This document shows positions 15,001 to 24,000 of a stretch of 64,000 nucleotides of DNA, piece after piece. The stretch is from Opitutales bacterium (GTDB taxonomy: Bacteria; Verrucomicrobiota; Verrucomicrobiia; Opitutales; PNEW01), in contig CBDANS010000006.1 in assembly GCA_965197745.1 (NCBI GenBank), forward strand, positions 800,001-864,000. The letters run 5' to 3'. Each line of letters begins with the position of its first letter. The stretch's first letter is position 1. Position numbers: made by a program.

Positions 15001-18000
15001 CACCTATGATGACCGTATCGCCCGGCTCAATCAAATTCACAAGACAGCATTCCATTCCAGAGCTAGCGGGCGCGGAGAGAGCGAATGTCATTTCATTCTC
15101 AGTGCAAAAAACCTGTTTGAGCATGGACTTGATCGTGTCCATTATACTGAGAAACGCTGGATCCAAGTGACCAACCAGGGGGGTGGCCATAGCGCGCAAA
15201 ACCCTGGGGTGGGCGTCGCTGGGCCCCGGGCCCATGAGAATTCTCGGTGTAGGTGTCAGTTCGCTGTTGCTATTCATAATTACTCTTAAATAGGTGTAAA
15301 ACAGGGGGAAAGTTATTGATTATTGCCAGTAAGACAAGCTGCTTTGTCAGCTTCGGATATGAAACTATTGCATTTAAACGCCTCTTTAGGTCTCTTCTTT
15401 ATTCTTTACCCTCGGCATGCTCATCATTAGAACCTCTGTGTATAGGTGTTTATTAGAAGAAATGCGAATACCTGTCGGGTAAAACCTTAAGTTTTATTTT
15501 TGCTACCATGATCACTTCCACATCATCCAGCGCCAGTAATGATATCGTTGAACGTTGCAGTAATGACGCTCAGACACGCCTTCGCTTAAAATACAATCCT
15601 TATTACCTTGCTTTTGAGGAGCAGAAAGGATCCCACGTCTGGCTTGATGGAAAAGAGTTAATTATGCTCAGTAGTAACGATTACCTGGGATTGAGTGACC
15701 ATCCCAAGGTTATCGAAGCAGGTAAAAAAGCATTGGAGACCTGGGGAGGGGGAACAACCGGATCACGTTTTGCAAACGGTAGCCGTCGTTTTCATGAAGA
15801 ATTAGAAGAGGAACTGGCGGCATTTGTGGGGAAAGAAGCCTGTCATGTAAGCGTCGCCGGTTATATCTCATGTATGTCTTCAGTTGAAGCCTTCGCCAAA
15901 AAAGGTGACCTGATTATAGTTGATCGTAATGTGCACTCCAGTCTTTGGGCAGGAATTGGAAACACAGGAGCCCGCCTCGAAAGATTCGCACATAACAATA
16001 TCAATAATTTGAAGGAAGTACTGAAAAATGAAGCTCCCGAAATAGCAAAAATGCTGGTAATCGAAGGGGTATTCTCGATGGAAGGTCATATTGCCAATCT
16101 TTCCGATTACATAGAGGTCACCCAAAACCAGAACTGTTTCATTGCGATTGATGATGCTCACGGTTTTGGAGTGCTTGGTGAACAGGGTAGGGGTACTGCG
16201 GACCATTTTGGTGTCACCGATCAAGTGGACATCATCTCAGGCAGTATGTCCAAATCGATGGGAAGCACAGGCGGATTTGTCACAGGGTCCAGCGAGATCA
16301 TTGAATATCTCAGGACTCATTCGAAACAAACTATATTCAGCGCGGCATTAAGTCCTTCCCAGAGTGCATGCGCACAAGCTGCTTTAAATATTATTAAAAC
16401 CGAACCGGAACACTATCAGCGCCTTTGGGACAACACCCGCTACTATAATAAAATACTCTCAGACTTAAATCTCGACACCTGGGGCAGTGAAACCCCCGCG
16501 ATACCACTTGTTCTTGGAGAATTAGAGCGCGCTTATTACTTTTGGAAAAAGCTGATGAAGAGAGGGGTATTTACAAACATTATTGTTCCCCCCGCGGTCT
16601 TACCTAACAAGATTCTTATTCGAACTGCCATGTCGGCGCGCCATACCCGGGAAGATTTGGATAAAATAGGTGAGGCGATGTCCTTTGCCGCCAAGGGTCT
16701 TTGAAATCAATACTTTCTCAACAAACCGTCAAAGATTTCCGGCGTGTCCTTTTATCCCGCCCAGACCGTATCGGCGACGTAGTCATTACGACATCATGTT
16801 TTAAGGCCATCCACGATGTCTACCCGCATCTGGAAATTTACTTTCTTGTCAAGGAAGCAAACGCGCCGCTCTTAAAAAATCATCCGTTACTTTCGGGACT
16901 CCTTACCGTCCCCAAAAATATACATTCTGTCGACGACACCGCATCGCATTTAAGTGAGGCAATGCGGAAATTACAACCTGACTGTATTGTCCACTTCCAC
17001 TATGATAATGCGGTTGCTGGAGCTGCGCTGGCTGTGGGCATTCCCTATATTCTGGGGCACAGCAAGAAAATTCAGAATCCGTGCCTGACGCACTCAGTCC
17101 TCGACCGTAAAAAAGAGGGCCTCAACCACGAAGCCAACTATAACTTTGAACTGCTCTCCCTCTTACAGATCACTCAACCTGACAACCTGGAGCCGTGGAT
17201 CACTCCTGAACCCGTAAGCGACGAACGCCTGCTTGAAATTCTTCCCTGGTGGACGCCCGAAACCCCATTTGTCGTGCTTCACATGAGCGCGCATGCCAGA
17301 AAAGCACGCATCCCCACAAAAATATTTGCTGAACTTTCTTCCTGGTTCATCAATGAATTAAATTTTCGGATCGTCCTCATTGGATCTGAAAGCAATGACC
17401 CGGCGATAGAAACGTATATAGGATCCATTGGTGACCATAAAAGAAAGGTCAGTAATTTAATCGGCGTCACTCATTTAGCAGAGACTGCCCGTGTATTAAG
17501 CGAAGCACGTATATTAATTTCTCGGGACAGCGGGCCTGCTCATATCGCCGCGGCATTGCAATGCCCCACCGTAACGATTGTAGGACCTTTAGGAAGACAC
17601 CTGGCTTCTACACGTTGGCGCCCGCTCGGTTCATCTGCATTGATACTGGAAAAACCTGTTCGCCCGCGATTTTTGGAAACTACACGGTCTTATCAAGAGC
17701 GTTATTTTAACGCTTTTACTGCGGAGGAAATTAAAAAAGGAATATGGGCGCGTTTAGAAGGGAGATCCGAATAGAAGGGGTGAGTAGAAAATCCAGCATA
17801 CAAAAATAACGCCCGCGCGAAAAACCCTTTATAGGGTGACAGCATCTTGAAATCGCTGGTAGAGAGTAGCAGCATTTTTACGTGCATCGGTATTTTTCTT
17901 CACCCAACTTTGTCCACTAATTCGGATTTTTTCATATAAATCTCTATTTTCCATCAGATCTGTAATAACCTGTATCCAGGGTGCGTTCTCCGGTAGGTCG

Positions 18001-21000: not shown

Positions 21001-24000
21001 AATAATCTCGACCATAAGCAGTGAGTCTACCCCCAGGTCTTCGAAAAGGTTGGTGTTATCGTCCCCCTCTCTGAGGCAATGACGCACATCCGGCTCAAGG
21101 AATCTCTCGATGATTCCCATGACAATTACCGGCAATTGATCAAGATTTGCGTTATGCCGGAAATCGATAGCGGCTTCTACGGTTTCCGGTGAACAACGCT
21201 TTAAGGATTCCCTTAACTCCTCTTCATTCTGTAGAGTAAAGGCAGGACTCTTCTTAAGCTCCATATTTTCAGGTATTCTTAAAAGATGCTTTTACAATAG
21301 CAATTTTAAAGTGCAAGCCTTTTCCTAAGATTTTATATGTAAAACATTTACCAATATTTAGGTCTCGATAATCAATTGTCTGATACCAATCCTAATTAAT
21401 CACTCATTTCATTGCATATACGCCAAACCCTGCTTGGCAAGGAGATATTTTGCGATAAAACGCGCCTGAATGGGAAATAACATACAGTATCATATCAGGT
21501 ATGCTGTTATATCCGATAATTAAGATTTAATATATGATTATTTTCACTTATACGATGATTGTTAATTGTCCTGAAATATCGTCAGTAAATCAGACTCTGA
21601 AGAATACCCATTGTTGCAATTGTATCCCAGGTGGAGATATTATTAAAAGTAAACGAGTTAACTGATATATTTTCTATATTCAAAAGCAGATATATAGGAT
21701 CGGGAAATGCAGTAACGGATAGTCAAATTGAATTCTCGCCCCCTCAATCCATCTATTCTAATCCTCAAAAGTGGTGACCCGCACGCGATAAATTACCAGC
21801 CATGCTAAGAATCGGTAATTATTTACTTCTCGGTCTTATATGGGGTGACCTGTTTTTAACCTTAAGCCTCGAATGGTCATTAAATGAACAGTACCAATAT
21901 GGATATCTTGTTCCCCTGATCGGCGCCTATCTGATTTACCTGCGATGGCAGGATAAGCCGACAACAGAGTTTGCGCGGTTTAAAAACCTGACCACGTGTT
22001 TGCTTTTCATTGCAATAGCCTGTCTTTATCCGACGAAAGTCATTCTCGAATCGAATCCTGACTGGCGGCTAATGCATTGGACGCAATCGTTGATCGTCTA
22101 CACGACAACACTGGTTATCCTATATCATTGGGGCGGCCTACCGTGGTTAAAACATTTTTCATTACCGTTTGCTATTCTCCTGTTTTCCGTTCCCTGGCCG
22201 ACACAGTTTGAACAGCCGATAATTCAAGGGTTGATGAGCATGGTTGCGATAATAACCGTAGATACTTTTAACCTCGTCGGTATTCACGCCCTACAAAAAG
22301 GGAATATCATTATGCTGAGTAATGGCTTAGTCGGAGTTGAAGAAGCCTGTAGTGGTGTGCGTTCATTTCAATCTACGCTAATGCTTGGATACTTTCTCGG
22401 TGAATTGTTTCGTTTTAAAACCAACTGGCGCCTCTCCCTCCTGGGCATTGGCGCCGCCACTTCAGTATTGCTGAATATTGTTCGCACCCTGGCACTTACC
22501 TATGCCACTCACATTATCGGTCCACGATTCATGGAACATTGGCATGACCCGGTAGGTTACTTAGTTTCGCTCGCTGCATTCGGCATTCTCTTAGTTTTAG
22601 CTTATTTTGTTAATAATAGGAATAGACACGAAAAGAGATTGAAAAAGGACAAATACAACTATCCCTATATTAACTGGTGGGAAGGGAAATATATTGGAGC
22701 TGCGCTAACCCTTATTATCGGGAGTTTCGTCTTTGTCGAAGCCTGGTACCGTTTGCGGGAAGCAGAAAAACCAAGCCGAGTCATTGCGACTATCGATTGG
22801 AAACAGGCCGCACCGGATGTAAAATATGACAATATTCCCGGGAGAATACGTTCCATTTTGCGGTTTACAGAAGGGGGGAAAGCCCATTGGACGATCGGTC
22901 AAAGAGAAAATTGGATAACCTATTATTTCAGTTGGGATGAAGGGAGTATCTCCTCATTTTCGGACGTGCACCGCCCTGAAGTGTGTCTGCCGGCTGCGGG
23001 CTATACCGGTATAACCCGAACTGACGATTTCAAGTGGTCAAAGGAGGGATTAGAGTTAATTTTAAATACCTACATCTTACAGGATAACGGATTTCCGGTG
23101 TATGTTTTTTTCTCGGTATGGAATGATTATCCCGGTGAAACTATTCCCACCGCCCGCAGCAAGTGGGAACGAATCCAAAACGCCTTAAACGCAAAACGAA
23201 TCAGCGGGAGAAGGTCGCTGGAAATTATTATTACGGGGTTGGACTATGAGGAGGAAGCGCGGAGACGGGTTCTCGCTTATCTCGATAGAGCTGTCAGTGT
23301 AGTAGACCAATGATACAAATGAAAATTTCGACAATGCTTTACCCTATTCCTTGCTAAGGTCGTAGTTGTTAAGGTAGACATCCATAGCATTCCAACTGTC
23401 AGCAAATAACTGTTGATCATAGTATATCTTAGCCTGCCAATAATAAACATACCCCGGAACAAATGATAATTGCTTGAGCTTATCGATTGTCCGAAGCGTT
23501 CGGTCCCAACTTTGTTGCGATATTTGCCGCTCTAATAAAGCGGCCCCCAAGACCAGATCATGTTGATTAGCGGTAAACTGCCGTTCTAATTGAACTATGG
23601 TGAGGTGTTCCCACAATTGTGGGATCTGAGGGATGGGCAAGTTATTTAAAACGATTTTACAGGCAGGTACATAATCACCCCTTGCCGCGTCAGTTTGAGC
23701 TTTTATCAACCATAATTCACGACCTAGCTCTGGATATTTCTCAAGGTGATCACTTACCATGTCCAATTCTTTTGTCGCTACCCACTTTTCAAACAAGGCC
23801 TGCTTTTGCTCTTTGGAATAGCGACTCAAATGAGGATAGGCATCCAGTTCCCGTCGAAATGTTTCAACATAATCGTCACCCCTTAATGAAATAAGCATAG
23901 TGTAGCGATATGCGGGGTCGATGGAAGATAATGTTCTAACTTTGGAATGCAATTGAGTAAATGGTTTGGAATAACGCAACATCAAGCGGTAAAGCAGCAT

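Follow-up and report, generated by a model that had tools for sequence, protein, structure and literature searches.

Gene content of the locus

The locus lies in a stretch of 64,000 nucleotides (the window) from an Opitutales genome that is 92% complete and is referred to here as G000. Its five open reading frames are all real and intact, and they form two convergent units separated by a gap of 54 bases (Table 1). One unit holds the genes for a serine palmitoyltransferase (SPT)-like enzyme and a GT9-family glycosyltransferase, and the other holds those for a GT4 glycosyltransferase, a FabB-like ketosynthase (KAS) and a fusion of an acyl carrier protein (ACP) with a dehydratase. This agreed with the preliminary description, in which the first two genes faced an operon of the other three. 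A promoter and terminator scan was uninformative, with 17 and 10 sites, respectively, where shuffled sequence averaged 12.4 and 6.9. The exosortase and export block next to the locus did not recur among the neighbor clusters of L061-L100.

Table 1. Features of the locus, numbered along the window
Feature	Position	Strand	Remarks
SPT-like alpha-oxoamine synthase	15508-16704	+	398 aa, PLP fold-I family
GT9-family glycosyltransferase	16701-17774	+	357 aa, start overlaps SPT stop by 4 bases
GT4 glycosyltransferase	17829-19037	-	402 aa
FabB-like ketosynthase (KAS)	19090-20349	-	419 aa, ketoacyl synthase family
ACP::dehydratase fusion	20425-21264	-	279 aa, PP-binding + FabA-like
ACP domain of fusion	20890-21264	-	about residues 1-125
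FabZ-type hot-dog dehydratase domain of fusion	20425-20889	-	about residues 126-279

The best NCBIfam match of the SPT-like enzyme was SerpalmtaseCFB, and the enzyme stayed below all three curated SPT cut-offs (378.9 bits against 640 for SerpalmtaseCFB, 321.3 against 500 and 268 against 670). Three SPT-like genes adjoining bCerS-like genes likewise fell below the SPT cut-offs. The best PDB match was 3A2B (E 2.9e-84), and cysteate acyltransferase, CqsA and ALAS ranked far lower than the SPT matches. The BioF and Kbl models gave 331-338 bits, so that the earlier ranking of SerpalmtaseCFB above both, under its cut-off and with 3A2B as the closest structure, was reproduced. These scores, and the finding that the enzyme is the sole alpha-oxoamine synthase (AOS) in G000, would also suit a housekeeping BioF or Kbl placed by chance among envelope genes, which we regard as very improbable because bioB and bioD were not found in G000 and the phylogeny sets the enzyme apart from both families. 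A careful 25-row tree placed the window enzyme with 9 relatives in a clade supported at 100/100, and a 100/99 clade united them with the SPTs of E. coli, Roseomonas and Bacteroides, leaving two Kbl and two BioF sequences outside. These rows are a subset of a quick 44-row tree, in which the grouping with known SPTs had an SH-aLRT value of 96; 15 Opitutales rows, G154, G372 and G170 were dropped, as were two long-branch rows (G188 and a P. vulgatus AOS), and both trees are without HemA, CqsA or cysteate acyltransferase (CFAT) rows. A279 and G85 of the window enzyme are as in SPTs and unlike Kbl, and many relatives hold separate, weaker AOS matches of at most 35% identity, which also argues against a housekeeping role.

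The catalytic residues K249 (the PLP lysine), H143, D215 and H218 were kept in 64/64 SPT orthologue rows; further residues of the window enzyme are N57, R87 and R372. Of the S. multivorum SPT residues given in passages of PMC10196870, the window protein keeps Y27, N52, G80, S81, F83, H138, S185, D210, A212, H213, S243, K244, F272 and A274. The clade has a long stem in the tree and departs from this pattern by T241 to S, N117 to C and, in 54/64 rows, S81 to A. Judged from these comparisons, the window enzyme is probably an SPT-like, serine palmitoyltransferase-type AOS.

The fusion protein, earlier called an ACP::FabZ-like fusion, does combine PP-binding and FabA-like domains in an intact open reading frame, with a FabZ-type His/Glu pair. 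FabA-type dehydratase-isomerases have a His/Asp pair and the FabZ type a His/Glu pair. In the dehydratase domain, H177 and E191 were invariant (45/45 rows) on a FabZ fold, and the His/Asp pair of the FabA/FabB route is absent. FabZ-like isomerases such as FabN exist, and by analogy the fused dehydratase may have isomerase activity despite its His/Glu pair. The ACP domain has two extra N-terminal helices (residues 11-20 and 26-38) and an invariant carrier motif, D80-S81-L82. It is a lineage-specific ACP distinct from the housekeeping AcpP, and it grouped with neither AcpR nor AcpP in a weakly supported tree. A Roseomonas AcpR-type query matched only the window ACP in G000, but an assignment as AcpR type was rejected since neither a profile nor the tree put the ACP together with AcpR. 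The best PDB matches of the KAS were FabB proteins, as the earlier assignment as a FabB-type ketosynthase had it; C173, H311, H346, K341 and the gate residue F405 are kept, and the position of FabB F390 is Ser403 in 51/54 rows, the other 3 being gaps. No enoyl reductase was seen in the cluster.

Inheritance of the gene set and a modelled SPT-ACP contact

The gene set was followed in 151 Opitutales genomes, G000 included. An SPT orthologue was defined by an identity of at least 55%, the next listed matches having at most 35%. The sample includes kin, hence the genomes are not independent and counts are given without a P value. An SPT orthologue was present in 81 genomes and an ACP/dehydratase orthologue in 91; 78 genomes had both, 13 only the latter and 57 neither. 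The co-inheritance reported earlier was therefore recovered in this larger sample, in 78/81 SPT genomes. The other three carry an ACP alone, adjoining SPT, so that an ACP occurs in 81/81, and a KAS was found in 78/81. Among the 91 ACP/dehydratase orthologues, 71 were clean fusions, 4 had one stop and 16 were split, and SPT accompanied 69/71 fused forms versus 9/20 split or stop-bearing ones. SPT and ACP lay within 10 kb of each other in 36 SPT genomes, far apart on the same contig in 5 and on different contigs in 40. Cultured carriers of the fusion include Opitutus terrae and Actomonas aquatica. The locus had been described as one of Opitutales, a restriction that did not hold: other orders of Verrucomicrobiia have the set as well, and it is found in at least 10 further families of the class. 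Outside Opitutales, 12 of the 15 ACP/dehydratase genomes tested have an SPT orthologue, and in G421 and G465 the genes for SPT, ACP::dehydratase and KAS follow one another co-oriented, with short gaps, as one operon.

The gene most tightly co-inherited with SPT was the GT4 gene, present in 83 of the 151 genomes, among them all 81 with SPT. A GT9 gene, which the preliminary description had counted in the set, lay close to SPT in no more than 8 of the 33 loci that were read, and these 33 are biased towards intact clusters because 20 were chosen for having SPT near ACP. The window GT9 is a paralogue of separate waaC/waaF-like genes of G000; GT9 is accessory, not core. Around the cluster, glycosyltransferases are many and varying (GT28, GT4, GT9 and GT2). 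A cluster SDR was found in 60/151 genomes, 58 of them with SPT, and was not found in 23/81 SPT genomes, including G000. By sequence, the cluster SDR of other genomes appears to fall in the KdsR-like SDR group; the KdsR model (NF049977) ranked first for 3/12 cluster SDRs, which reached at most 160 bits against a cut-off of 400, and an unlinked generic SDR scored above them at 182 bits. This 182-bit SDR of G000 was considered as a replacement reductase and rejected: it occurs in f1 (3/3), is absent from f5, f20 and f26, and has generic SDR families as its best models.

We also modelled the SPT dimer with ACP residues 10-125. The score was 0.66, against 0.29 for the best of three controls, and passed a mark that had been reached by 116/157 solved pairs and 2/215 mismatched pairs, counts that hold only roughly for a model with its own alignments and three chains. 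The runs shared at least 90% of contacts, and the partner pLDDT was at least 83. In the model, ACP Ser81 and Leu82 contact SPT residues 25-29 and 339-343, and the carrier serine is thus predicted to dock on a clade-specific surface patch, R26/K28/Y29/Y343/W346. Within the SPT clade, Y29 was kept in 64/64 rows, K/R28 in 63/64 and Y343 in 61/64; among outside references, 0/12 carry Y at position 29 or 343. Since helix II is a general ACP recognition helix and the controls were without a housekeeping ACP, a resemblance to solved ACP complexes may account for the pass.

The acyl-chain module had been called dedicated. That word overstates the case, since 11 genomes keep ACP, dehydratase and KAS without SPT, GT4 and SDR (family f3, 7/7; genus g11, 3/3; and G032), with ACP helix II unchanged where shown. 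Such genomes would be expected if the module were a general source of special fatty acids, either a FabA/FabB-like anaerobic unsaturated route or an AcpXL-like lipid A supplier, and if SPT and the glycosyltransferases were merely clustered with it and used acyl-CoA or the common pool. The gene order dehydratase, KAS, kdtA in five f3 loci favors this reading, as does the precedent of the acpXL-fabZXL-fabF2XL-fabF1XL-adhA2XL-lpxXL cluster (PMC11901934), but no lipid A acyltransferase recurred among the annotated neighbor clusters. It is also favored by the FabB proteins as best KAS matches and by the finding that a PF00487 desaturase was not found in f3 (0/7) or G032; against it, most module carriers, g11 (3/3) included, have desaturases, and the dehydratase pair is of the FabZ type. 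A further point in its favor is the distance of 30-140 kb that separates KAS and fusion along one contig in G019, G041, G093 and G123, while the constant presence of ACP with SPT, the SPT-ACP operons of two outside families and the passed model tie the carrier to SPT. The SPT-less genomes may represent secondary losses that retained a side use, and we judge a general fatty acid module to be unlikely. Two genomes speak against the pathway proposed below: the fusion, KAS, GT4 and SDR are all present in G045 (100% complete) and G028 (87%), where no SPT orthologue was found even by profile.

Ceramide genes and the proposed pathway

The caveat of the preliminary description that no bCerS had been identified still applies: none was found in G000 with seven queries, and one query gave a full-length bCerS in just 2/151 genomes, in both adjoining a different AOS. 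Here we take YghO, a YghO-type GNAT, to be bCerS. Two other candidates were rejected. In 6 genomes there are distant YghO-like GNAT genes, but most of them adjoin AMP-ligase-like genes and they do not track SPT. An integral-membrane pair, seen in the cluster of four outside-order genomes and considered as an N-acyltransferase, occurs in 7/151 genomes and is not core. A CerR-type reductase linked to spt was not found; the best G000 matches were about 30% identical and lay at other sites, the highest-ranking one within a cluster of hopanoid genes. One E. coli AasR query found no AasR-like ligase in G000 (a single 25% match over 166 aa), and no AasR recurs near the cluster.

The missing bCerS would also fit an enzyme of the same wiring that accepts a different amino acid, such as glycine or alanine, or an unacylated product (an amino-alcohol glycolipid or a glycan anchor) in place of a true sphingolipid. 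The long-stemmed clade with T241S, N117C and frequent S81A, the many and variable glycosyltransferases, and trees built without CqsA, HemA and cysteate acyltransferase leave room for it. So do reports on standard lipid extracts: for one cultured Opitutales member, the consulted text of a UHPLC-HRMS study names no lipids other than phospholipids, and "ceramide" and "sphingo" each occur 0 times in it (PMC13274419), and for another, the consulted part lists PG, PE and unidentified lipids by TLC (PMC11165907); either strain may lack the cluster. Among solved structures and profiles alike, however, the nearest matches are SPTs, with cysteate acyltransferase, CqsA and ALAS far lower, and the dependence on GT4 would fit a C1 hydroxyl supplied by serine. 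A change of amino acid or product thus seems improbable to us.

We think it reasonably likely that this locus forms the core of a pathway to glycosylated sphingoid lipids in Verrucomicrobiia, with an acyl substrate assembled on a private carrier. The earlier glycosphingolipid-type reading is partly upheld, in so far as the tree, the active-site residues, the co-inheritance of SPT with GT4, the operons outside the order, the complex model, the apparently KdsR-like cluster SDR elsewhere and the failure to find bioB and bioD in G000 all favor it; it is weakened by the missing bCerS, by the genomes that keep the module without SPT, by the SPT genomes in which no cluster SDR was found, by the long stem and the scores below cut-off of the SPT clade and by the two lipid reports that mention no sphingolipid, and the lipid is a prediction from genes. 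In the proposed pathway, housekeeping enzymes would phosphopantetheinylate the ACP at Ser81 and malonylate it, and the FabB-like KAS would draw on the general pool for an acyl chain, which it would condense with the malonyl group of the private ACP, so that the carrier would be loaded without an AasR-type ligase. While still on the carrier, the chain would be processed by a ketoreductase, either FabG or the cluster SDR, and by the fused dehydratase. SPT would then bind the private ACP and join chain and serine to a 3-keto long-chain base, an SDR would reduce this base, and GT4, with the variable GT28, GT4, GT9 or GT2, would attach sugars. N-acylation would be by some non-bCerS enzyme, or would not occur.

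More speculatively, and in our view rather doubtfully, ACP, KAS, ketoreductase and dehydratase could perform a single round of elongation with no enoyl reductase, handing a trans-2-enoyl chain to SPT to give 3-keto-4E-sphingenine, the eukaryote-type sphingosine, with neither oxygen nor a desaturase. Glycosylation of this base would follow, and it would be either acylated by a non-bCerS enzyme or left unacylated. If so, this would possibly be an oxygen-free route to sphingosine. Among its products could be some of the mono-unsaturated ceramide bases reported from the anoxic Black Sea, where they account for about half of the Cer structures, although passages of the same study correlate these lipids with other phyla (PMC11334938). 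The broader pathway would imply that common bacteria of soil, freshwater and the sea make an envelope lipid so far unseen, with an acylation step by another enzyme, and the cultured carriers make it testable now.

Comparison with known systems

Known bacterial sphingolipid designs are few: acyl-CoA SPT, AasR/AcpR and type I PKS. If our reading is true, the locus would be a further design, not described before, in which a type II ACP::dehydratase/KAS unit is wired to SPT without a known ceramide synthase. Like NodF/NodE of rhizobia, where the acceptor is the Nod factor, and like the AcpXL cluster, it would combine a private ACP with a separate dehydratase and ketosynthase to supply one envelope product with a special acyl chain. 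It differs from the latter in having one KAS instead of two, a fused ACP::dehydratase, an SPT-like linked acceptor enzyme and no recurring acyltransferase among the annotated neighbors. The AcpXL/FabZXL/FabF2XL/FabF1XL/AdhA2XL/LpxXL cluster makes a fatty acid with a very long chain, with lipid A as acceptor via LpxXL (PMC11901934). Bacteroides has SPT plus KdsR (BT_0972) (PMC9278070); the best NCBIfam and PDB matches here are Bacteroidota SPTs and the cluster SDR appears KdsR-like, but the scores are far under the cut-offs and the B. finegoldii SPT locus that was read is without ACP or KAS. In the AasR/AcpR/Spt system of Caulobacter, E. coli BL21 and Sphingomonas, a specialized ACP is the preferred thioester donor of SPT (PMC9386255). 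SPT is likewise paired with a specialized ACP here, and glycosyltransferases lie nearby in the E. coli locus read as well. In that system, AasR loads the ACP with a free fatty acid and bCerS and CerR follow, whereas AasR and bCerS were not found in the window genome, and compared with AcpR the window ACP has two extra helices, a fused dehydratase and an accompanying KAS. The closest logic is that of SgaA/SgaB/SgaC, where a dedicated chain-building machine feeds SPT, with a proposed KDS reductase; SgaA of Pseudomonas fluorescens MYb115 is an iterative type I PKS for C24-C28 sphinganines (PMC12134224). No such PKS was found next to the AOS at the window locus, where the same role would fall to discrete type II enzymes (ACP::dehydratase, KAS and SDR) accompanied by several glycosyltransferases.

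A five-gene locus and its genome setting

Positions 15508 to 21264 of the window (contig C6 of genome G000) hold five intact open reading frames, and the functions proposed for them in the preliminary description agreed with their Pfam, NCBIfam and PDB matches. A serine palmitoyltransferase-like oxoamine synthase (SPT) gene overlaps a GT9 gene by 4 bases. Convergent with this pair lie the genes for an ACP::dehydratase fusion, a FabB-like ketosynthase (KAS) and a GT4, separated by gaps of 75 and 52 bases; the fusion and the KAS are referred to below as the module. The GC content of the locus is the same as that of its flanks. 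Since G000 carries a separate housekeeping set elsewhere (fabG-acpP-fabF, fabZ, fabH, fabD, lpxA/B/D, waaA, waaC/F-like genes and a PPTase), the five locus genes are extras.

Features discussed in the text and their positions
Feature	Location	Positions	Strand
FAD/Fe-S oxidoreductase and class V aminotransferase	window	11245-15277	
SPT	window	15508-16704	+
GT9	window	16701-17774	+
GT4	window	17829-19037	-
KAS	window	19090-20349	-
ACP::dehydratase	window	20425-21264	-
Exosortase and export block	window	21802-30064	
GT28-like/SCP2/aminotransferase operon	G000 C7, locus L174	8349-11495	
Two GT4 genes	G000 C7, locus L175	8472-10810	
Membrane protein pair	G000 C7, locus L255	8263-9665	
Paralogous cluster	G113, locus L193	5551-11568	
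SPT with split ACP/dehydratase	G299 C108	1896-7165	

Divergent from SPT lie a 970-aa oxidoreductase and an aminotransferase, and ORFs matching this pair in size and layout occur at locus L114. On the other side, divergent from the fusion operon, an exosortase gene precedes a set of export genes on the opposite strand, O-antigen-ligase-like and Wzc-like ones among them; this block was not seen to recur beside the cluster in other families. An operon for a GT28-like protein, an SCP2-domain protein and a class III aminotransferase is unlinked to the cluster in G000 and lies inside it at L079, L080, L206, L239 and L240, and two GT4 genes have orthologues flanking the cluster in other genomes. Further lipid clusters (L176, L179, L180 and L181) contain FabZ-like, enoyl-reductase-like and FabH-like genes with an FAD oxidoreductase; KAS and ACP with an FAD oxidoreductase; a ketosynthase-bearing ORF of at least 3893 aa; and squalene-hopene cyclase genes. 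Desaturase matches (PF00487) numbered 1 in G000 and 13 and 10 in its two closest relatives, G029 and G056.

The SPT-like enzyme and the carrier module

The SPT-like enzyme is the sole oxoamine synthase found in G000, and neither bioB nor bioD was found in this 92% complete genome. In a careful 25-row tree, it belonged to a clade (100/100) on a long stem, which sits within a larger clade (100/99) together with the SPTs of E. coli, Klebsiella, Roseomonas and Bacteroides and with SPT-like genes adjoining genes for bacterial ceramide synthase (bCerS)-like proteins; two Kbl and two BioF rows lay outside. HemA, CqsA and cysteate acyltransferase, which have no rows in the tree, ranked far lower in the PDB and NCBIfam comparison. 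Residues described in a study of S. multivorum SPT (PMC10196870) were mapped by gap-free alignment, and those of the PLP and serine sites are kept. Clade-specific changes were T241 to S (64/64 rows), N117 to C (63/64) and S81 to A (54/64, the window enzyme keeping Ser). The enzyme scored below the cut-off of all three curated SPT models. We regard it, from its sequence, as a putative, unproven member of the SPT family that may work like SPT.

In the fusion, the ACP domain carries an invariant D80-S81-L82 motif and is extended N-terminally by two helices; the dehydratase domain has a FabZ fold with invariant H177 and E191 (alignment; model pLDDT 88.7). Profile searching recovered 2407 relatives from the 8000 candidates scored, the named carriers including Opitutus terrae and Actomonas aquatica. 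The KAS keeps C173, H311 and H346, together with F405 as the gate. Conserved substitutions adjoin this residue: FabB F390, which we take to line the extender pocket, is replaced by Ser in 51/54 rows, G299 by Ala in 53/54 and G336 by Ser in 53/54; these changes suggest an unusual substrate. The role of the gate residue is taken from PMC9006962. A paralogous cluster in G113, which may encode a pathway for a halogenated lipid or polyketide, comprises two halogenase-like genes, an ACP of the same type and a related KAS, together with a second ACP and a degenerate KAS-like gene. In family f40, some genomes (genus g216; L253, L254) carry a dehydratase of the fusion type standing alone, lacking both a nearby KAS and an SPT orthologue.

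When the SPT dimer was modelled together with ACP residues 10 to 125, the complex scored 0.66 versus 0.29 for the best control, the controls including no housekeeping ACP. Of the reference pairs, 116 of 157 solved and 2 of 215 mismatched ones reached the mark used, counts that apply only approximately here. At least 90% of contacts were shared between runs, and the partner pLDDT was at least 83. The model places Ser81 and helix II of the ACP on SPT residues 25-29 and 339-351, adjoining Y32, whose counterpart Y27 in S. multivorum walls the acyl site according to PMC10196870. SPT Y29, K/R28 and Y343 are near-invariant in the clade and different in outside references. The model supports binding of the module ACP by SPT; its score could also be driven by likeness to solved ACP complexes. 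Our literature search, covering sources in part, found no structure of an oxoamine synthase with an ACP, which does not exclude that one exists.

Distribution within and outside Opitutales

Among 151 genomes of the order, SPT occurred in 81, ACP/dehydratase in 91, KAS in 93, GT4 in 83 and a short-chain dehydrogenase/reductase (cluster SDR) in 60, counts that describe rather than test because the genomes are related and non-independent. SPT and ACP/dehydratase were found together in 78 genomes and both missing in 57; in the three SPT genomes lacking a dehydratase, a lone ACP gene adjoins SPT. GT4 occurs in every SPT genome and, in addition, in G028 and G045; the 60 genomes with the cluster SDR all fall inside this set. 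In its distribution the SDR tracks SPT, not the module. In 36 of the 81 genomes, SPT and the ACP are less than 10 kb apart; 5 more have the two genes well separated along one contig, and 40 have them on separate contigs. Of 33 loci of the order, a selection that favours intact clusters, 8 had a GT9 gene.

Of 71 genomes with a fused ACP::dehydratase, 69 also had SPT; for split or stop-bearing forms the figure was 9 of 20. Speaking against the sphingoid pathway proposed below, a general fatty-acid role of the module also fits these data: 11 genomes (family f3, genus g11 and G032) keep split ACP, dehydratase and KAS without SPT, GT4 or SDR, no PF00487 desaturase was found in f3, and in five loci of SPT-less f3 genomes (L084, L085, L088, L091 and L093) the split dehydratase and KAS lead directly into kdtA. 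The f3 ACP is located elsewhere, ahead of an ABC transporter operon, in the loci fetched (L089, L092 and L094).

A class-level profile search of 251 genomes found ACP/dehydratase in 67. Of these, 46 lie outside the order, and an SPT orthologue was present in 12 of the 15 outside genomes tested. In the phylum-level sample (251 genomes), only G180 and G287 were found outside the order, both also with an SPT orthologue; the set is therefore patchy. The 22 outside loci read had KAS in 16, SDR in 13, GT28 in 10 and SPT in 5. The recurring order was ACP::dehydratase, KAS and SDR, then GT28 and GT4, and G421 and G465 carry SPT, ACP::dehydratase and KAS in a single run. G299, of family f31, has SPT and a split ACP/dehydratase within 4 kb; f31 otherwise lacks the fusion (1/18).

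Proposed pathway and comparison with known systems

We consider the conserved, uncharacterised pathway at this locus to be real; its product is, on balance, probably a sphingoid lipid that carries sugars and is built with a type II carrier module. As no ligase of the type that loads the ACP in known SPT systems (AasR) was found in G000, the KAS reaction itself would offer the most straightforward loading route for the private ACP. The chain would then be reduced and dehydrated on the carrier and taken from it by SPT, an SDR would reduce the ketone, and GT4 and others would add sugars. The cluster SDR, which matches KdsR weakly and is missing from G000's family, might act on the 3-keto base or serve as the module's ketoreductase. 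No enoyl reductase recurred among annotated neighbours of the cluster. If the housekeeping FabI ignored the private ACP, a trans-2-enoyl chain would result, and the SPT product would carry the 4E bond of sphingosine. NodF/NodE are a precedent for chains of this type. Alternatively, by analogy with SgaA, the chain may be longer or otherwise tailored and saturated.

Full-length bCerS was found in 2 of the 151 genomes and not in G000, and without a bCerS the amide step of the proposed sphingoid pathway is unexplained. A pair of 151-aa and 313-aa membrane proteins in G000, which presumably resembles SdpA/SdpB-HTTM pairs, failed as an N-acylation candidate, occurring in only 7 of 151 genomes of the order; its orthologues have no Pfam match and lie inside the cluster in four genomes outside the order. 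Separately, sporadic genomes of the order (L209-L213) carry a distant YghO-like GNAT gene, mostly followed by an AMP-ligase-like gene. Two published lipid analyses of cultured strains of the order, whether or not these carry the cluster, report no sphingolipid in their main text (PMC13274419, PMC11165907); a heavily glycosylated product might perhaps escape such lipid extracts.

Published work already documents specialised ACPs for SPT (PMC9386255), a PKS feeding SPT (PMC12134224), private ACP/FabZ/KAS clusters (PMC11901934) and Spt-like genes counted in 22 Verrucomicrobiota MAGs (PMC11334938). The open-access literature on Verrucomicrobia/Opitutales sphingolipids or the enoyl route, as far as its accessible text goes, yielded no description of the cluster. 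New here are the absence of bCerS across the sample, save the two full-length cases, the lineages that keep the module alone, the operons found beyond the order and the SPT-ACP model.
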